A stretch of DNA of 64,000 bases from Gemmatimonadota bacterium (GTDB lineage Bacteria; Gemmatimonadota; Gemmatimonadetes; Gemmatimonadales; GWC2-71-9), in contig CP070716.1 of the NCBI GenBank assembly GCA_020350425.1, positions 2,077,373 through 2,141,372 on the forward strand, given 5' to 3'. Numbering within the stretch: position 1 is the stretch's first letter; each line of letters begins with the position of its first letter. A program made the translations under genes and the position numbers. Below are positions 3,620 through 35,609 of the stretch, in pieces. Under the pieces are notes generated by a model. It saw nothing but the letters and a program-made list of their open reading frames with translations. It was not told the origin of the DNA and did no database searches.

Positions 3620-5269
3620 CTACTCTCGCTTGTTGTTCACCCGCTTCATCCGCTGCTGGGAGATCAACCACTGCTGGGGGATGCTCGCGATGTTGCTGAC
3701 CGCGTAATACAGGTTCAAGCCCGCCGACAGCTTCAGGAAGATGAAGGTGAGGAACCCCGGCATGACGTACAACATCATCTTCGCCTGCGGGTTGGGCGGC
3801 ACGCCTCGCTGTCCGATCTTGGACACGACGAACATGGACAGCCCCATCAGGATCGGAATGATGTAGAGCGGGTCGGGGCGTGACAGATCGGGCAGCCATA
3901 GGAACGGCACGCCCCGGAACTCGATCGTTTCCCGGAACACGAAGAAGAGCGCGAACAGCACGGGCATCGGGATCAACATGGGCAGGCAGCCGCCCAGCGG
4001 GTTCACCCCGTGCTCCTTGTACAGCTTCATGACCTCCTGCTGCATCCGCTGCGGATCCTGCTTGTAGCGCTCCTGCACCGCCTTCAGCTCGGGCTGGATC
4101 GCCTGCATCGCCATGCTGGACTTCATCGCCTTCTGGTTGAGCGGCCACAAGAGCAGGCGCATCGCCAGCCCGAAGACGATCAACACCCAGCCGTAGCTCA
4201 GGTTCAACACGCCGTGCATCCACAGGAGAATCCGTACGATCAGGTTGGCGAACGGCCGGATGATCGGCCGGAAGACCCAGCCGTACGGGTTCACATCCTC
4301 CAGGTCATGACCGATGCGGGCGAGGCGGCGAAACTCCTGCGGACCGATGTAGCCCACGAAGCCGAACACGCCTCCCGGCGCGGGCAGCGATGACACGACG
4401 TCGGCGCGGGTCGCGTTCTTCCCGTCGCGTGCGCCGCCCGTGACCATCGCGCCCCCGAACTGGGCATGCTCCTCCTCGACTGCGAGCACGGCGGTCAGGA
4501 AGTACTTCGACTTCACCGCGACCCACTCGAACGGACCCTCGAGAGCGCGTTGCTCTCCCGGGTCGAGTGAGCGGAAGTCCAGGCGTTCGGTCTTGGCGGC
4601 CTTGGTGACCACCGAGTACGAGCGGTAGTCGAGGACGCTGTCGGCCTCCACGAGGGCGATGCGCGGTCCCAGTCGCACGAGGACGAAGCCACTCGACTCG
4701 GTGCCGCTGATCCGGCCGTGCACATCGAACAGGTACTGATCGGGCCGGAAGGTGTAGGTCAGCTCGACGGCTAGCGCACCCCGCCGCCCGATCCAGCGTA
4801 GCTCCGTGCCATCGGTGGCGACGGTGACCGCCGTGTCACTGGGCTCGAACGTCCAGTCGGCCAGCGACAGCGTGTCTTCGCCGAACACCAGCGCGTACTC
4901 CAGGAAGCGGGATTCCACCGGCAGTAGCTCCGCCTGACCCGTATCTCCGGGCGCGAACGTACGGTACTCCCCGAGTTGGGCCGACACCGGCTTTGCGCCC
5001 GCCGACGAGAACACCAACCGGAAGAGCGGCGACTGCACCACCACCTGCTGTTCGGGGATCGTGTCCGTCTGGGGAACCTCCGCGACCGCGGCGATCGAGG
5101 CCTCCCGGAGCGTATCCGGTGCAACGATGACCGTTTCGGGCGGCGGTGATACGAGGGTGTCGAGAGCGCCCGCCAGCTGCGGCGGCGGCGGCTCGCGCTT
5201 GATGAGCAGCGCAGGCAGCACCGCGACGACCAGCATCAGGACGATGGCGAGGGCGGTTCGGCGATCCAT
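3620..5269 (-). CDS. yidC: membrane protein insertase YidC
   Basis: Conserved core YGWVLIVFGLAMRLLLWPLNQK ... NPLGGCLPMLIPMPVLFALFF. ATG 5269 (MDRRTALAIVLML) is preferred. The track start, GTG 5302, lies inside yidD. Confidence 0.9.
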   Translation of the reverse strand: MDRRTALAIVLMLVVAVLPALLIKREPPPPQLAGALDTLVSPPPETVIVAPDTLREASIAAVAEVPQTDTIPEQQVVVQSPLFRLVFSSAGAKPVSAQLGEYRTFAPGDTGQAELLPVESRFLEYALVFGEDTLSLADWTFEPSDTAVTVATDGTELRWIGRRGALAVELTYTFRPDQYLFDVHGRISGTESSGFVLVRLGPRIALVEADSVLDYRSYSVVTKAAKTERLDFRSLDPGEQRALEGPFEWVAVKSKYFLTAVLAVEEEHAQFGGAMVTGGARDGKNATRADVVSSLPAPGGVFGFVGYIGPQEFRRLARIGHDLEDVNPYGWVFRPIIRPFANLIVRILLWMHGVLNLSYGWVLIVFGLAMRLLLWPLNQKAMKSSMAMQAIQPELKAVQERYKQDPQRMQQEVMKLYKEHGVNPLGGCLPMLIPMPVLFALFFVFRETIEFRGVPFLWLPDLSRPDPLYIIPILMGLSMFVVSKIGQRGVPPNPQAKMMLYVMPGFLTFIFLKLSAGLNLYYAVSNIASIPQQWLISQQRMKRVNNKRE

Positions 5270-5279
5270 CGACGGCGCG

Positions 5280-5519
5280 CTAGGGTACCGGGTCGTAGCC
5301 ACCCGGATGGAACGGGTGGCACTTCAGAATCCGCCTGGCGCCCAGCCACGATCCCCGCAGTACGCCGTAACGGTTCACGGCTTGGAGGGCGTAGCTAGAG
5401 CAGGTCGGGGCGAACCGGCAGGGAGACGGAAATGGTGAAGCCAGCACCTGGTACAGGCGGATCAGGCCCATGACCACGTGCCGCGGCCAGCGGATTACCC
5501 GGAGAGCGTATGTGCCCAT
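5280..5519 (-). CDS. yidD: membrane protein insertion efficiency factor YidD
   Basis: Conserved [61 protein letters not shown]. Start is ATG 5519 or ATG 5471. The 127-aa track ORF is over-extended into rnpA. Confidence 0.85.
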
Positions 5520-5779
5520 TGCTCCAGATCGCGGGCGAGGGCCTCGAAGTCGGCGTCGTAGGCCGACGCTCGTGACCGAATCACCAGGTCCAGGGGTGCG
5601 AGCGTCGGCAGGACACGCCGGCGGGAGATGTCCCGCAGGCGGCGGCGGAGCCGGTTGCGACACACAACGGTCTGGCCGTACCTGGGTACGACGACTGCCA
5701 GTCGCGGGTGTCCCACCTCGTTCTCACGCCAGGAGATGTCCAGTCTCGGGGTGCGGCGGCTGCGGCCCATCCGCGTCAC
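5495..5779 (-). CDS. rnpA: ribonuclease P protein component
   Basis: RNR-type basic motif [17 protein letters not shown], and position between rpmH and yidD. The frame stays open upstream of GTG 5779 (…[10 protein letters not shown]…), so the true start may be further 5'. Confidence 0.8.
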
Positions 5780-6133: not shown

Positions 6134-7516
6134 ATGGATTTGACAGCTAAACAGGCGTGGTCTCGTCTCCTTGACGCCGCCCGCTCCCAGCTACCCGACC
6201 CGACGGTTCGGACCTGGCTGGATCCAGTCGAGCCGATCGACCTCAAGGAGGGGAGGCTCGTCCTCGCCGCCCCGGACCAATTCGCGGTGGAGTGGAACGA
6301 GTCCAAGCACTCCGAGCTGCTGGCCCAGCTGGCGGCCCAAGAGCTGGGCACCGCCCTCCAGGTCACGTTCCGTGTCCAGGAGGAGCGGACGCAACGGCCC
6401 CAGATGGACTTCTTCGTGGCGCCGACGGCCGCGGACGGCAAGGCCCAGGCCCGGACGACGCGCCCACTCAACGAGCGCTACTCCTTCCGGACCTTCGTCG
6501 TCGGCAAGTCCAACGAGCTGGCCGGCGCTGCCGCACACGCCGTCGCCGAGGCCCCCGGGAAGACCTACAACCCCCTGTTCATTTATGGGGCCACGGGGCT
6601 CGGCAAGACACACCTCATGCAGGCCATCGCCCACGCGGTCCTGGAGCGGGATGCCTCGAGCAGGGTGCTCTACATGGGCGCCGAGCAGTTCATCAACGAG
6701 GTGATCGAGAGCATCCACAGCCGCACCATGGTTGAGTTCCGCCGGCGGTACAGAACCGAGGTGGACATCTTCCTGGTCGACGACGTGCATTTCCTCGAAG
6801 GCAAGGAAATGACCCAGGAGGAGTTCTTCCACACGTTCAACGCCCTGCATGAGGCGCAAAAGCAGATCGTGCTCACGTCGGATCGGCCCCCCACCGAGAT
6901 CCCGGGACTCGAGTCCCGCCTGGTGAGCCGCTTCGAGTGGGGGATGGTGGCGGACATCGGGCAGCCAGACCTGGAGCACCGCATCGCGATCCTGCGAAAG
7001 AAGGCGGAGCAGGACCACCTGGAGCTCACGATTCCGGACGACGTGTTGCGCTTCATCGCCGAGCACGTGCGCAGCTCCGTGCGGGAGCTCGAAGGCTGCA
7101 TCATCAAGCTCCTGCTCTTCGCCTCGCTGAAGCACCGGGAAGTCACCGTGGAGCTCGCCCGCGAGGCCCTCGCCGACAAGATCGTGCAGGACGCGGCCGC
7201 CATGGCCGACCACCCGGCCAGCCTCCCGAGCGTCGACCGGGTTCAGGAGGTCGTGGCCCGCCGCTGGGGAGTTACCCCCGAGGGGCTGCGCTCGAAGGCA
7301 CGCACCAAGACGCTCACGGTCCCACGTCAGGTGGCCATGTTCCTGGCGCGTGAGCTGCTCGGCATGCAATTGGTGGAGATCGGGCAGGCGTTCGGCGGTC
7401 GCGACCACTCAACGGTGATTCACAGCCTCGACAAGGTGCAGCGCGAGATGGCGTCCGACCGGAAGTTCCGTGATCGGGTTGAACACGCACGCCGCGAGTT
7501 GGCACATGTCCACTAG
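6134..7516 (+). CDS. dnaA: chromosomal replication initiator protein DnaA
   Basis: 460 aa. AAA+ Walker A GATGLGKTHLMQAI, Walker B FLVDDVHFL, and C-terminal DNA-binding domain VPRQVAMFLARELL...FGGRDHSTVIHS. Confidence 0.97.
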   Translation: MDLTAKQAWSRLLDAARSQLPDPTVRTWLDPVEPIDLKEGRLVLAAPDQFAVEWNESKHSELLAQLAAQELGTALQVTFRVQEERTQRPQMDFFVAPTAADGKAQARTTRPLNERYSFRTFVVGKSNELAGAAAHAVAEAPGKTYNPLFIYGATGLGKTHLMQAIAHAVLERDASSRVLYMGAEQFINEVIESIHSRTMVEFRRRYRTEVDIFLVDDVHFLEGKEMTQEEFFHTFNALHEAQKQIVLTSDRPPTEIPGLESRLVSRFEWGMVADIGQPDLEHRIAILRKKAEQDHLELTIPDDVLRFIAEHVRSSVRELEGCIIKLLLFASLKHREVTVELAREALADKIVQDAAAMADHPASLPSVDRVQEVVARRWGVTPEGLRSKARTKTLTVPRQVAMFLARELLGMQLVEIGQAFGGRDHSTVIHSLDKVQREMASDRKFRDRVEHARRELAHVH

Positions 7517-10856: not shown

Positions 10857-11223
10857 CAGAGGTGGCGGAGCCGTAAGCCGAGTTCTGTTCGACGCGGAGC
10901 GCCGGAAGGTCATCTATCTGGGATGGCGGTCACCCGCCACCTCGAGCGGCCTACCCGCGGCTCTGACGGCCCGGGCCGGGCCTCGCCGCCTATTTGGCCT
11001 TGCTCCGACTGGGGGTTGCCGTGCCACGACTGTTGCCAGCCGCGCGGTGGGCTCTTACCCCACCATTTCACCCTTACCCACCGAAGTGGGCGGTGTCTTT
11101 TCTGTGGCCCTGTCCGTCGCCTCGCGGCGCCCAGGCGTTACCTGGCAGTCTGCCCTATGGAGCTCGGACTTTCCTCGGTCCGCCCGAAGCGGACCGCGAC
11201 CTGTCACGCTCCACCACCTCTGC
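10857..11223 (-). ncRNA. rnpB: RNase P RNA, bacterial type A
   Basis: The reverse complement contains GAGGAAAGTCCGAGCTCC (CR-I), AAGGGTGAAATGGTGGGGTAAGAGCCCACCGCG, and ACAGAACTCGGCTTAC near the 3' end. The 5' CAGAGGTGGTGGAGC can pair with the 3' GGCTCCGCCACCTCTG (P1). Ends are approximate, +/-5 nt. Confidence 0.92.
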
Positions 11224-31223: not shown

Positions 31224-31820
31224 ATGATCGCTGCCATCATCCCAGCCGGCGGTGCCTCCGAGCGCATGGGGGCGCCCAAGGCCCTGCTATCGTACCGTGG
31301 CCGCACTTTCCTGAGGGCGATCCTCGATGCGTGTGACGCGCTTGGGCTCGAACGCCGCCTGGTGGTGCTCGGGTATGACGCAGACAAGATATTGGCGGAA
31401 ATGGACTTGAGTGACGCCACGGTGCTGCGGAACCCCACGCCCGAGAGCGGTCCCATCGGCTCCATCCGGGCCGCGATCGGCGCCGTTCTCAACCATCCGG
31501 TTGAAGGCGTGCTGGTGTGGCACGTGGATCGGCCTCACGTCGCCATCGCCACGATCGAGACCATGCTCGACCGGTTCCGCCAGGGGCCACAGCCGATCGT
31601 GGTTCCGAGCTACCAGGGCCGGCGCGGCCACCCGGCGGTCTTCGGGCGCGCGGTATTCGAGGAGCTCCTCTCCGGCCCGGAAGACCAAGGGGCCCGAGCC
31701 GTGGTCCGCTCCGACCCCTCGAGAGTCGCGGTCGTGCCCGTGGACGATCCAGCGGTCACCGAGGACATCGACACGCCGGAGGCCTACAAGGGTCTCCTGC
31801 GGCGAGAGGATACTAGGTAG
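31224..31820 (+). CDS. MobA/MocA-like nucleotidyltransferase (molybdenum cofactor cytidylyl/guanylyltransferase family)
   Basis: N-terminal IIPAGGASERMGAPKALL. 198 aa. ...GHPAVF... is typical of the MocA-like family. Confidence 0.75.
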   Translation: MIAAIIPAGGASERMGAPKALLSYRGRTFLRAILDACDALGLERRLVVLGYDADKILAEMDLSDATVLRNPTPESGPIGSIRAAIGAVLNHPVEGVLVWHVDRPHVAIATIETMLDRFRQGPQPIVVPSYQGRRGHPAVFGRAVFEELLSGPEDQGARAVVRSDPSRVAVVPVDDPAVTEDIDTPEAYKGLLRREDTR

Positions 31821-33063
31821 CGGGTAGCACCACCCGCAGGCGCATGACGTACTGCACGTCCAGCTCGTCGCGCCACACGCCGTAGATCTCGCTACCGCGG
31901 AACACCCGCGGTGCGAACCGCTTCGGCATGGAGACGTGTCCCAGGAACCTCCCGTCTGCACAGAAGACGTCCCACTCGGGAGCTCCGGTATCCTCGAGCA
32001 GGTTGTACCGCTCGAGTTCCTCCTCGCTCAGGTCGGAGGCTGCCTGTATTTGCTGTACCCAGATCGTCCCCTGCGGGCCCGTCTGGATGGTGGCGAACGC
32101 TGGGAAATACTCACCGAAGTGGACCATGTTGCGGAGCTGGGGTAGCAGGGCGGGTGGGACGCCGGCATCTGTCCACGCCCGCTCGAGGAAGCCCATCACC
32201 GCCTGCTGGTCCCGCTCACCCACCGGCTGGCGCTCGAACGGCTTCGTGATGATGCGCTCGCACCTGCCGTCGCTCGTGTATAGGCTGAGTCGGTAATCGT
32301 CGTTGGTGGCGTACAGGAGCTTGAGGTCGTCGGTGATGCGCCACGCCGACTCTTTCGTGTACAGGTTGATCTCGGGAGTGCCCCCGCTCATCTGGAAGGT
32401 CTTTCCCGACGGGAACTTCATCATCGTGTCGGTCACCGTTCCGGCGGTCGTCACGACGACGATGGCGTCCAGCGAGTCGCGCTCCGGCTGATTGGGCCCC
32501 GGCATCGGCCGGCGCTGCATCACGAGGCTTCCGGTGCTAGTCGCCTGGAACTGCATCGGCATCCCCTCGGCCAGCGAGAAGGGGAAGCTCCCGGCATCGG
32601 CACCGTCTGGCAGGAAGAGGTTCACCCGTTGATTGGCCATGTCGGGCACGATGAGCGTGTCGCCCGGACCGGCGAATACGAAGAGAGCGCCCGGACCGAT
32701 CTCTCCGGGCCCGCCGCCCGGCTTGCCGATCGTGTGCCGATACCCGCCGTCGGCCGCGAACACCTTGATCTGCTGTGCCTGGGCGTCCAGCACGAAAATC
32801 TGGCCGTCGGCGTCCACGGCCATGAATCCGATCTGCCCGAACTGATACTCGGGCTCGCCCTCGACCGTGCCGATGCGAAGCTCCTCCTCGACGGTCCACC
32901 GCGTCGCCGACGTCCAGATACCGCGGTCGGGGTTGGCGACCATCTGCACCCCCGCGCTGTCCGACACGGTGCCAGCCCATTCGCCCCCGTCGCCCGCGCA
33001 GGCGCCCGCAACGCCGACGAGCAGCGCCGCCACGGCCACGCGATGTGTGATTCCGGAATTCAT
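31813..33063 (-). CDS. lipoprotein, 6-bladed beta-propeller-like
   Basis: Signal peptide plus Cys (VAVAALLVGVAGACAG). Repeated blade-like segments (GQIGFMAVDADGQIFVLD, GALFVFAGPGDTLIVPD, ...). 416 aa. Confidence 0.6.
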   Translation of the reverse strand: MNSGITHRVAVAALLVGVAGACAGDGGEWAGTVSDSAGVQMVANPDRGIWTSATRWTVEEELRIGTVEGEPEYQFGQIGFMAVDADGQIFVLDAQAQQIKVFAADGGYRHTIGKPGGGPGEIGPGALFVFAGPGDTLIVPDMANQRVNLFLPDGADAGSFPFSLAEGMPMQFQATSTGSLVMQRRPMPGPNQPERDSLDAIVVVTTAGTVTDTMMKFPSGKTFQMSGGTPEINLYTKESAWRITDDLKLLYATNDDYRLSLYTSDGRCERIITKPFERQPVGERDQQAVMGFLERAWTDAGVPPALLPQLRNMVHFGEYFPAFATIQTGPQGTIWVQQIQAASDLSEEELERYNLLEDTGAPEWDVFCADGRFLGHVSMPKRFAPRVFRGSEIYGVWRDELDVQYVMRLRVVLPAT

Positions 33064-33070
33064 CGGGTCG

Positions 33071-33403
33071 TCATTCCCCTTTCGACTCCTCGAGGATGCT
33101 CTCCATACGCTGTCGGTACTCCTGAAACGCCTCGCGTCCCTCGCCAGTTGCCCGGATCATCGTACGCGGCTTCTTGCCGACGAACTTCTTCTCGACGTCA
33201 ATGTAGCCGGCCTGCTCGAGCTTGCTGAGGTGCGAGGAGAGGTTTCCCTGCGTCATACCGGTCTGCCGCATGAGGAAGAGGAAATCTGCGCCGTCCACCA
33301 CGTACAGGTACGACATGAGCATGAGCCGAGCCGGCTCGTGAATCAGGCGATCGATCACACCCGGCTGCGCAGCGCTGTGGGCGTTACCCTCATCCGTTGT
33401 CAT
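33071..33403 (-). CDS. winged-helix transcriptional regulator (HTH_34 / ArsR-like)
   Basis: 110 aa. IHEPARLMLMSYLYVVDGADFLFLMRQTGMTQGNLSSHLSKLEQAGYIDVEKKFVGKKPRT. Confidence 0.8.
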   Translation of the reverse strand: MTTDEGNAHSAAQPGVIDRLIHEPARLMLMSYLYVVDGADFLFLMRQTGMTQGNLSSHLSKLEQAGYIDVEKKFVGKKPRTMIRATGEGREAFQEYRQRMESILEESKGE

Positions 33404-34010
33404 GGACCTCGGCCCCCGTCGGCAGCGGATACTTCCGCAAGAACCGGATCAACATGATGAGCCCCGGTATGATGATGACCGTGCCACCGACGAGAGCGGT
33501 CATGGCCGTGCCCACTGGGAGCAGGTGGGAGAAAACCGCGGCGTACACGAGACCGGCGAAGAGCAGCCGTGGATGGTCGAGCCAGTAGGCCATCCCGCCG
33601 AAGACGACGAGTGCCCACACGCCGGCGAACAGATTGACCAAACCGAGATTGCCGCGAAACCAGGTTGAGATGCTGCCACCGGAGGCGATGGCGAGAAAGA
33701 GCGCCGCGCCGAGCCCGAACGAGAACAGCAGCAGCGCCGTCGTCTTCCTGTGCTTCTCGCGCCGGCCCGGCCCGAAGTTCACCACTCCCATGCGGGGAAC
33801 GGTGATCAACCGCTTCGCCATTACCATGCTCACGACGATGCCTACCGACAGTATCAGATGCACGGCGATGGCCCAGGACTCGACCCTGACGAGTGCGCTC
33901 ACGCCGAGAATGAGCAGCGTGGCTCCGAGGAACAGTTCCCAGAGACCGTCGTCGTGCATTGAGCGCCAGGCCCGTCGCTCCAGCTCTTTCAGGTTGGGTT
34001 GGCTAGACAT
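33390..34010 (-). CDS. hypothetical polytopic membrane protein (paralogue 1)
   Basis: ATG 34010 (MSSQPNLKELERRAWRSMHDDGLWELFLG). About 5 hydrophobic segments. Shares AKRLITVPRMGVVNFGPGRREK and FLRKYPLP with the upstream paralogue. The upstream part of the 331-aa track ORF looks spurious. Confidence 0.65.
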   Translation of the reverse strand: MSSQPNLKELERRAWRSMHDDGLWELFLGATLLILGVSALVRVESWAIAVHLILSVGIVVSMVMAKRLITVPRMGVVNFGPGRREKHRKTTALLLFSFGLGAALFLAIASGGSISTWFRGNLGLVNLFAGVWALVVFGGMAYWLDHPRLLFAGLVYAAVFSHLLPVGTAMTALVGGTVIIIPGLIMLIRFLRKYPLPTGAEVHDNG

Positions 34011-34114
34011 GCTGATCTCCAGTGCAGGGGCGCCGCGCGGCCAATCGAGAGCCTCCTGCGGGGTACGTGGTTCCAGGCGCTTCGCCTCCCGGCGGAGGGC
34101 GTCCCATGCGGCCG

Positions 34115-34714
34115 CTAGTTCGCCGTACCTGGCCCGGGCGCCGGGAGCGGGTACTTGCGAAGGAACGAGACGAGGATGACGAGGCCCACGGCCAGCACCG
34201 CGCCGCCGGCCACGAGCATGGGCAGCGGCGAGTCGAGCAGCTCGGTCAGCGTGAACGCCGTGCCGACGATCAGCCCGACCAGGTAGAGGCGTGGGAAGTC
34301 CTTCCAGTGGGCGACCGCCGCGAACAGCAGTGCGATCAGTGCGCCGAGGCCGAAGCTCAGCAGCACGTGGTACTCCCGCACCCACGCCGATCCCCGCAGC
34401 GTCACGATGAGCAAGGCGATGGTGAGGGCAAAGACCAGAACCGCCAACAGGCGCAGGTTGCGCAGCTTTGCCCGGCGTGCCGGTCCGAACTTGACCTGCC
34501 CCATGCGCGGCACGGTGATCATGCGCTTTGCCAGGATGATCGCCGGCCCCATCAGCAGCATGGGGATGTAGAGATAGAAGCGGTACTCCCCCGCGATCCC
34601 TGCGAGGAACGCGAGCAGCAGGAGCAGGCCGAGGAAGACCTCGACCAGCCCGTCTTGATGGTACAGCTGCCAGGCCTTCCGCTCGAGCTGCCTGAGATCG
34701 AGTTGACTCATCAT
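34115..34714 (-). CDS. hypothetical polytopic membrane protein (paralogue 2)
   Basis: ATG 34714 (MMSQLDLRQLERKAWQLYHQDGLVEVFLG). Motifs AKRMITVPRMGQVKFGPARRAK and FLRKYPLP. About 5 hydrophobic segments. Confidence 0.65.
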   Translation of the reverse strand: MMSQLDLRQLERKAWQLYHQDGLVEVFLGLLLLLAFLAGIAGEYRFYLYIPMLLMGPAIILAKRMITVPRMGQVKFGPARRAKLRNLRLLAVLVFALTIALLIVTLRGSAWVREYHVLLSFGLGALIALLFAAVAHWKDFPRLYLVGLIVGTAFTLTELLDSPLPMLVAGGAVLAVGLVILVSFLRKYPLPAPGPGTAN

Positions 34715-34889
34715 GACCGTAGCCTCATCTAGTTTGTCATACAAACCAGTCTGCGACCATTCTAGCACTGCGGTGCGAGTCCGTCAACCCCCAGTAGCCA
34801 ACTCTTTGCAATAGAAGCAGTTGTGGATTCCCGGGGTGTTGCAGTTCCTGGGCGTTAGTCAGTGCCTGAGATCCATGTGCACCAATTCA

Positions 34890-34905
34890 TCAACAAAAGC
34901 GTTGA
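34890..34905. promoter_or_regulatory. inverted repeat TCAAC-N6-GTTGA, candidate SufR operator
   Basis: tcaacaaaagcgttga, 45-60 nt upstream of the sufR ATG. It contains the CAAC-N6-GTTG core that I recall being reported for cyanobacterial SufR sites. Confidence 0.45.
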
Positions 34906-34949
34906 ATTAGTTGCGCAAACTGGTCACTTTGTGTTAGGATTCCTGCCCT

Positions 34950-35605
34950 ATGAACCCGATCACTCCCGGTCTGGCTGGCCACAAGGGTCTCCGCGGCGAG
35001 ATCCTGCTCCAGCTCAAGAAGACGCAGCCCGCGACGGCGAAGGAGCTCGCCGACGTGTTCGGCGTCTCGGCCAACGCCATCCGGCGCCACCTCAAGGAGC
35101 TCGAGGCGGAGGGCCTGGTGCAGTACGGACGGGAGCAGCGCGGCACGGGCGCCCCGACGTTCACCTATCGCCTCAGTGCCAACGGTGAGGCGCTCTTTCC
35201 CAAGCAGTACGGCGAGGCGCTGACCCACGTCCTCTCGTTCATCGCCCAGGCCAACGGGAGGGAAGCGGTGCGCGAGATGTTCGCCGAACGGTTTCGCGTC
35301 CAGGCCGAGCGGATGCGTGCCGAGCTGGTCGACGTGACGATCGAGGAGAAAGTCCAGGCGGTCGTGGAGCTGCTGTCGCAGCAGGGGTTCATGGCGGCGT
35401 GGTCGGCCGAGCCGAACGCGCTGCGTCTCGCAGAGCACAACTGCGCGTTCCAGGCGGCCGCGGAGCAGTTCCCCGAGATCTGCGCCGCCGAGGCCGAGTT
35501 CCTGAGCGAGGTGTTGCAGAGCGAGGTCACACGCGATCAGTACATCCCGGACGGCTGCAACAGCTGTCAGTATTCCATCGCCCCGAAGCGGGGCCATGAG
35601 GAGTC

Positions 35606-35609
<4 letters not shown>
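34950..35609 (+). CDS. sufR: SufR-like transcriptional regulator (wHTH + C-terminal Cys cluster)
   Basis: N-terminal [44 protein letters not shown]-terminal cysteines HNC...EIC...DGCNSC. Sits directly upstream of sufB, with a 4-nt overlap. Confidence 0.75.

Follow-up and report, generated by a model that had tools for sequence, protein, structure and literature searches.

Which genes of an unrecognised cluster in a Gemmatimonadota bacterium belong together, and what might they do? The cluster lies on the minus strand at positions 31813-34714 of a 64,000-nucleotide (nt) stretch of contig CP070716.1 (GenBank assembly GCA_020350425.1, positions 2,077,373 to 2,141,372 of the forward strand), which we call the window. 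An initial annotation, made from the letters alone, had read it as a four-gene operon for two paralogous membrane proteins, a winged helix-turn-helix (wHTH) regulator and a beta-propeller lipoprotein, and had suggested a membrane-sensing or regulator-sequestration role. Analysis of this locus and its relatives gives a module that is real, widespread and previously unannotated, with a defined operator and, we infer, autorepression. Its invariant part is one to four genes of an unannotated membrane-protein family followed by the wHTH gene, and the conserved operator at its promoter is the strongest evidence for it.

The conserved unit is one to four membrane genes and a wHTH gene

All four proposed open reading frames (ORFs) are present in the window, and gene calls on identical public contigs give the same four products, of 199, 206, 110 and 416 amino acids (aa). 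The first two genes in the ORF list are memA (34115-34714), the upstream paralogue, which carries every motif of the family, and memB (33390-34010), which adjoins the regulator gene; each encodes a protein with six predicted transmembrane (TM) helices. Their paralogy is borne out by 37% identity over 198 aa (BLASTP, E 2e-39), and the motifs first quoted for the pair are the conserved motifs of the whole family. The 110-aa wHTH protein, an HTH_34 winged-helix protein and predicted autorepressor, is encoded at 33071-33403, and the 416-aa lipoprotein, an NHL-repeat beta-propeller and lineage-specific neighbour, at 31813-33063. The 3' end of memB overlaps the start of the wHTH gene by 14 nt, and the lipoprotein gene starts (33063) 7 nt beyond the wHTH stop, both as originally described.

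We examined 91 loci, 11 found through exact-protein look-ups and 80 through a scan of one genome per GTDB species; the scan returned 182 stretches encoding a relative, of which 80 entered the gene-context set. The scan relied on a narrow alignment of the membrane family, and gene context was read from six-frame ORFs with hidden Markov models for both proteins. One wHTH gene of the same subfamily directly follows the membrane gene or array, on the same strand, in 90 of the 91 loci (E 1e-39 to 1e-59). In the sole exception, L084, the contig ends 91 nt past the last membrane gene. Sampling from the regulator side gives a matching picture, and an Asgard chromosome carries three unannotated genes of ~215 aa followed by the regulator gene.

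Among 82 non-redundant loci, the membrane gene is present once in 49, twice in 21, three times in 10 and four times in 2. Duplication, which had been counted as part of the system, is therefore optional, and the proposed four-gene unit gives way over these loci to one to four membrane genes plus the wHTH gene. All-against-all clustering of the ORFs flanking 83 loci revealed no third recurrent gene family outside Gemmatimonadota; the recurrent flanking clusters were shadow ORFs of the module and Gemmatimonadota synteny, and nothing else. Given this spread of copy number, and a propeller gene confined to Gemmatimonadota, we regard both the duplication and the propeller as lineage-specific and the membrane gene or genes with the wHTH gene as the core.

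The junction between the two core genes is compact. The last membrane gene overlaps the wHTH gene in 63 of 78 loci. An overlap of 14 nt is the most frequent (26 loci), next comes one of 8 nt (14 loci), and overlaps of 11 nt and of 4 nt occur in 6 loci each. The regulator is thus tightly and probably translationally coupled to the membrane genes, as the initial annotation had supposed.

The carriers in the locus set are all metagenome-assembled genomes (MAGs) from about 14 lineages, with Chloroflexota in the majority. The bacterial lineages are Gemmatimonadota, Chloroflexota, Omnitrophota, Zixibacteria, Sumerlaeota, Fidelibacterota, WOR-3, Actinomycetota, Latescibacteria, Sedimentisphaerales, Aegiribacteria and Pseudomonadales; the archaeal ones are Thermoplasmatota and Promethearchaeota (Asgard). 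We found no description of the module in the literature on HTH_34/PF13601, PH1061, the operator half-sites or the membrane sequestration of autorepressors.

On one Anaerolineales contig (L035) the module occurs twice, with ~1.2 kb between the copies; one copy (4001-5626) has two membrane genes and a wHTH gene, and the other (6785-7511) has one membrane gene and a wHTH gene cut by the contig end. On JGI metagenome contigs L008/L009 the module is divergent from an arsenic-resistance cluster encoding an ArsR-type HTH_5 regulator, an ArsP permease, a thioredoxin-like protein, an LMWP arsenate reductase and an SBF/ACR3-type transporter; this is a single, non-recurrent case.

A conserved palindrome lies at the predicted promoter

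The single transcription start expected upstream of the cluster has a predicted counterpart in a sigma-70-type promoter at 34759-34787 on the minus strand. It consists of TTGACG (34787-34782), a 17-nt spacer and TAGAAT (34764-34759), with the TG of an extended -10 element at 34767-34766. This promoter matches 10 of 12 positions and is the only promoter-like site in 31500-35000. Beginning 12 nt after the -10 hexamer, at about +5 to +21 of the transcript, is a 17-bp palindrome, GGTTTG-TATGA-CAAACT (34731-34747, minus strand), which we predict to be the operator.

This palindrome belongs to a family with the consensus A[CG]TTTG-N5-CAAA[CG]T. We counted it in 78 non-redundant loci, taking the 130 nt ahead of the first membrane gene and scoring the 12 specified positions. 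All 12 positions matched in 46 loci, at least 11 in 68 and at least 10 in 75. The density of perfect sites is 4.37 per kb in this upstream stretch vs 0.0017 per kb in the rest of the loci. Within the 64-kb window, 34731-34747 is the single site with at most one mismatch, and 0.02 such sites are expected from shuffled sequence.

When upstream regions were aligned on the operator, most bacterial loci showed a near-consensus TTGACA-17-TATAAT promoter just upstream of it, and the distance from the -10 hexamer to the operator was 7 nt in 30 loci and 11 nt in 18. In archaeal loci this place is taken by an A/T-rich, TATA-like box. In Gemmatimonadota, the conserved blocks in the part of the intergenic region nearer the membrane genes are the -35 element (TTGAC) and the operator. 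Small repressors of the PadR, MarR and ArsR families autoregulate through palindromic operators that overlap their promoters. The two-fold symmetry of the site, with half-sites 11 bp apart, and its location over the start of a strong promoter make this the classic position for a dimeric wHTH repressor. It is therefore very probable, on these sequence grounds, that the wHTH protein represses its own operon through the palindrome as its putative binding site.

Some upstream regions contain more than the main palindrome. In L026, L045, L050, L066 and others, at ~-60 to -10 from the first membrane gene, extra degenerate half-sites flank it on both sides, with tACAAAta directly before and a degenerate second palindrome directly after. 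These flanking half-sites suggest that two or three 17-bp operators lie in tandem and are bound cooperatively. Separately, the upstream region of L021, from a MAG labelled Candidatus Omnitrophota, is almost identical to that of L018, from a Thermoplasmatales MAG. Both have the archaeal-style TATA-like box and no -35/-10 elements, and the L021 contig may be mis-binned archaeal DNA.

The regulator is a minimal wHTH protein

The regulator is a full-length match to Pfam HTH_34 (PF13601; E 4.9e-29, 100.8 bits vs a 27-bit cutoff, profile positions 2-80 of 80). Its AlphaFold2 model (predicted local distance difference test score, pLDDT, 87) has the layout a1-a2-a3-wing-long a4, the first three helices spanning 24-35, 41-48 and 52-64, the two strands 68-75 and 78-85, and the last helix 87-107. 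The protein lacks Cys and any further domain, and F93 and Y96 in its helix a4 are conserved. The nearest fold in the PDB is 1ub9, PH1061 of Pyrococcus horikoshii (template-modelling score 0.76-0.83, root-mean-square deviation 1.1 A), followed by MarR, PadR, HxlR and ArsR repressors. PH1061 shares the full-length HTH_34 domain and a superposable model, but its identity to the regulator is only 26%, and the literature we searched gives no function or partner for it. Within HTH_34, the subfamily described here is set apart by its obligate membrane partner and its A[CG]TTTG-N5-CAAA[CG]T operator.

The wHTH fold and long C-terminal dimerisation helix also recall LmrR, Rv3488, NadR, SqrR and BigR of the PadR, MarR and ArsR families. 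Unlike ArsR-type sensors, however, the regulator lacks Cys and metal-site residues, and its operator sequence is distinct. It does not qualify as an ArsR/SmtB metal sensor, scoring 28.8 bits against the NCBIfam HTH_metalloreg model vs a 55-bit cutoff; no Cys is found in its 110 aa and no conserved His in helix a4. Among the PADLOC and PHROGs models it matches nothing but the generic HTH part of Csa3.

Regulator sequences are 56-65% identical between this protein and sampled relatives from other phyla, the Asgard archaeon included, and up to 85% identical among closer relatives; 32 positions of the alignment are invariant. A regulator identical to that of the window is on record from a Gemmatimonadota MAG. 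Over the same range, outside Gemmatimonadota, the membrane partners are 26-40% identical.

The membrane proteins form a large unannotated family

The membrane proteins had been left unrecognised by the initial annotation, and no profile library that we tried (Pfam, NCBIfam, PADLOC, PHROGs, PDB) matches them. MemA and MemB have no Pfam-A or NCBIfam match, and 54 aligned relatives have no consistent Pfam match. A word-indexed search returned 64 relatives, all labelled hypothetical and devoid of Pfam domains. The family is nonetheless large: a profile search of 1.84 billion cluster representatives (50% identity clusters) found 3,139 clusters at E <= 1e-3, 1,797 at E <= 1e-10 and 489 at E <= 1e-30. 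A profile search of a 5.8-billion-sequence set returned only unnamed metagenome and MAG proteins. JGI labels a few members 'MFS family permease'; we rejected this label, as these proteins have no MFS Pfam match and six TM helices in ~200 aa vs the 12-TM architecture of that family. PADLOC and PHROGs gave no significant match for the membrane proteins (the best was a PHROG of unknown function, E 0.081), and a typical member had no tblastn match in plasmid and phage collections. By these sequence comparisons, the module is not a known defence or phage family.

The AlphaFold2 model of MemB, built on the 54-sequence alignment, is confident (pLDDT 90.7; predicted template-modelling score 0.83). It shows an N-terminal amphipathic helix and six TM helices, which replaces the earlier estimate of about five hydrophobic segments. 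Extensions of the second and third TM helices (TM2 and TM3) form a cytoplasmic hairpin with the conserved PRxG-x-V-x-F motif at its tip. Lys and Arg residues number 16 inside vs 2 outside, agreeing with the six-helix model and fixing the topology as N-in/C-in. No similar structure emerged from a Foldseek search of the PDB with the model (best E 0.56, template-modelling score below 0.3), and a PDB profile search with the family gave no credible match.

Conservation, analysed in an alignment of 122 family members, is strikingly one-sided. Of the 25 positions that are at least 80% identical, 19 fall among the 62 predicted cytoplasmic residues and none among the 26 outer-loop residues (Fisher p 1e-6). 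The outer loops are hypervariable and range from 2 to 25 residues in length. Even among the 20 most diverged paralogues, D21, G22, P72-R73-x-G75, G183 and F190 are kept in 19-20 of 20. The sole conserved polar residue within the TM helices is an acidic one, position 25, where TM1 meets the cytoplasm, and the strongly conserved TM positions are otherwise Gly or Ala. With no conserved polar TM residue apart from position 25, there is no hint of a transport pathway.

In two metagenomic proteins, P0068 (419 aa) and P0176 (404 aa), two membrane-protein copies are naturally fused head to tail in one chain. Such tandem fusions suggest that the family works in dimeric form, with MemA and MemB pairing as a heterodimer.

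Membrane proteins as candidate controllers of the regulator

How might the two conserved components work together? The reading that we favour, tentatively and as plausible rather than probable, is that the conserved unit is a self-contained autorepressed operon, made up of a strong promoter, a start-site operator, the membrane gene or genes and a coupled wHTH gene, in which the membrane proteins control the wHTH protein. A wHTH dimer would bind the palindrome at the transcription start and repress its own operon. The membrane proteins, acting as homodimers or heterodimers (MemA/MemB here), would bind the wHTH protein by means of four elements that together make up a conserved cytoplasmic platform: the N-terminal amphipathic helix LKELERxA..DG, a TM2-TM3 'finger' with K/R-x-x-x-T-x-PRxG-x-V-x-F, loop residue R148 and the C-terminal F-x-x-x-Y-P. 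Through this contact the membrane proteins would control whether the wHTH protein can reach DNA, according to a signal that their hypervariable outer loops pick up within the membrane or beyond it, so that the membrane protein would be both sensor and product, in the manner of SdpI/SdpR. The NHL lipoprotein would be a passenger on the same transcript in this genome.

We prefer this model because of the cytoplasmic platform, the variable loops, the arrays of paralogues on one constrained regulator, the translational coupling and the lack of any other linked gene. Cytoplasmic conservation together with hypervariable outer loops fits SdpI/SdpR-like control, and with it the membrane-sensing or sequestration role first suggested, yet this pattern falls short of proof. 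The contact between membrane protein and wHTH protein is suggested weakly and indirectly, by the cytoplasmic conservation and the coupling. Several points weigh against the model. No toxin or signal gene is linked to the module in the flanks of the 83 loci. Minimal PadR, MarR and ArsR dimers can bind small ligands where their subunits meet, and with F93 and Y96 in helix a4 the wHTH protein may likewise sense a ligand directly. The conserved face in the cytoplasm might instead bind some other partner or have an enzymatic function. Control could also be anti-repressor or co-repressor in kind, the data fixing neither sign.

Direct ligand sensing is central to a different explanation, in which the locus is a classical repressor/effector pair following the logic of TetR-TetA or LmrR-LmrCD. 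The wHTH protein would itself sense a small molecule, metal or lipid, and the membrane proteins would be the induced effector only, whether an exporter, a channel, or a membrane-protective or immunity protein, with no regulator contact. Operons of this sort most often pair a repressor with a membrane effector, and the operator-promoter geometry would suit any autorepressor. The nearest folds to the regulator are ligand-responsive MarR, PadR and ArsR repressors (NadR, Rv3488, HsmR, SqrR), and F93 and Y96 could line a pocket at the dimer interface. However, the membrane family carries no transporter signature, its conserved TM positions being Gly or Ala except for the acidic position 25, and its conservation is concentrated on the cytoplasmic surface. 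The wHTH protein has neither Cys nor the ArsR-type metal-site pattern, and falls below the HTH_metalloreg cutoff. Moreover, a strictly fixed gene order with stop/start overlaps, in bacteria and archaea alike, is seen more typically with interacting partners, and we consider a simple repressor/effector pair a serious but rather doubtful explanation. The data on linkage, coupling and cytoplasmic conservation apply equally to a third arrangement, in which the wHTH protein would be mainly a structural subunit tethered to the membrane, and the two proteins together a membrane-anchored complex for DNA binding, comparable to a ToxR or CadC split into two polypeptides. Here the membrane protein would be a co-repressor or tether, not an anti-repressor, and would feed back homeostatically on its own amount; the data would suit either sign of effect. 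This arrangement has no precedent for the membrane family, and membrane tethering of a chromosomal operator would be costly, which makes it very unlikely in our view.

The original idea of a four-gene system would have the exported propeller work with the membrane proteins and the regulator, for example by relaying an external ligand signal. The propeller gene begins 7 nt beyond the wHTH stop, no promoter-like site is predicted between them, and a propeller homologue lies downstream of the wHTH gene in all nine Gemmatimonadota loci. It is absent, however, from every locus outside Gemmatimonadota, and within that phylum the entire neighbourhood is syntenic (sufR-sufBCD, mocA-like gene, def), from sufR to def, so that linkage of the propeller there carries little information. 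The four-gene neighbourhood is thus conserved within Gemmatimonadota, as part of a syntenic region, and lacks its propeller elsewhere. The spacing between wHTH and propeller genes also varies, with a 92-aa ORF between them in L002 and gaps of roughly 460-660 nt in L016 and L049. A functional four-gene system is accordingly improbable; the lipoprotein gene, which is probably co-transcribed in this genome, is a local neighbour outside the conserved module.

Relation to SdpR/SdpI and significance of the module

SdpI of Bacillus subtilis sequesters the ArsR-type autorepressor SdpR at the membrane (PMC2910880). The module resembles that pair in having a small ArsR-like wHTH autorepressor, here predicted, in an operon with a ~6-TM membrane protein as the only regulated product. 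In both, the regulator-facing surface (predicted here) is cytoplasmic and the variable surface external, and both families occur in bacteria and archaea. The sequences, however, are unrelated: MemA, MemB and the 54 relatives have no SdpI Pfam match even at E <= 1, and the wHTH protein scores 11.9 bits against NCBIfam repress_SdpR vs a 100-bit cutoff. Gene order is also reversed, with the membrane gene first and the overlapping regulator gene last, and the flanks of the 83 loci contain no linked toxin operon.

The module joins a large unannotated membrane family, of 3,139 clusters and no PDB fold match, to a specific regulator and DNA site. A hypothetical family thereby becomes testable, with operator, promoter, repressor and candidate sensor defined in a unit small enough to rebuild in E. 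coli. It is also unusual for a regulator to remain 56-85% identical across the sampled phyla, an Asgard archaeon included, with its operator/promoter geometry preserved, and this combination argues for horizontal spread and for strong constraint on several surfaces. Should control of the repressor by the membrane protein prove direct, the module would represent a second, independent and far more widespread instance of the SdpI/SdpR principle, and would offer a compact orthogonal sensor/regulator part. Otherwise, the module would still define an inducible membrane function that is new and occurs in many anaerobic lineages that are uncultured. A bolder possibility is a pan-prokaryotic system of membrane-to-DNA signalling on the SdpI/SdpR principle but of independent origin, spread between bacteria and archaea, Asgard archaea among them, in which 6-TM sensors of a new fold directly gate a hyper-conserved repressor through the cytoplasmic 'PRxG finger' and tandem sensor arrays, with their hypervariable outer loops, form a receptor or immunity repertoire that converges on a single operator. 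We regard this broader proposal as speculative and on the unlikely side.

The propeller lipoprotein and neighbouring genes

The lipoprotein has a signal peptide with a Cys. It had been described as having propeller-like repeats; the propeller stands, and its type is recognisably NHL. In phmmer searches of the PDB it matches NHL-repeat six-bladed propellers, with E values of 1e-15 to 1e-12 to the NHL domains of TRIM71, TRIM2 and Thin over two to three repeats; Brat is also among the propellers matched. It differs from these proteins in being bacterial, in its signal peptide and Cys, and in having no TRIM context. Its Pfam match to DUF5128 ('6-bladed beta-propeller'), at 25 bits, is just above the cutoff of 22.9, and a single Pfam NHL repeat scores below its own cutoff.

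Divergent from memA is a sufR-like gene (34950-35609, plus strand; TIGR02702, E 4e-35, below cutoff), followed by sufB, sufC and sufD. The sufR/memA intergenic region contains CAAC-GCTTTT-GTTG at 34891-34904, inside the block GCAACTAATTCAACGCTTTTGTTG, which is nearly invariant in the nine Gemmatimonadota loci. We take this motif to resemble the cyanobacterial SufR operator, CAAC-N6-GTTG. A candidate second wHTH site, with everted half-sites CAAAGT-gacc-AGTTTG at 34917-34932, lies ~20-30 nt upstream of the sufR start. Eight related Gemmatimonadota intergenic regions do not conserve this pair, and we therefore treat it as probably a chance occurrence; in this genome the wHTH protein may nevertheless cross-regulate sufR.

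At the other end of the cluster, the lipoprotein gene (minus strand) converges with a gene for a MocA-like molybdenum-cofactor cytidylyltransferase (31224-31820, plus strand). Their 3' ends overlap by 8 nt, at 31813-31820, and no terminator-like hairpin is predicted at this junction. Farther away, a bacterial class A RNase P RNA lies at 10858-11217 on the minus strand. It is a full-length Rfam match (295.6 bits, E 1e-95) and the sole Rfam family at gathering score in the window.

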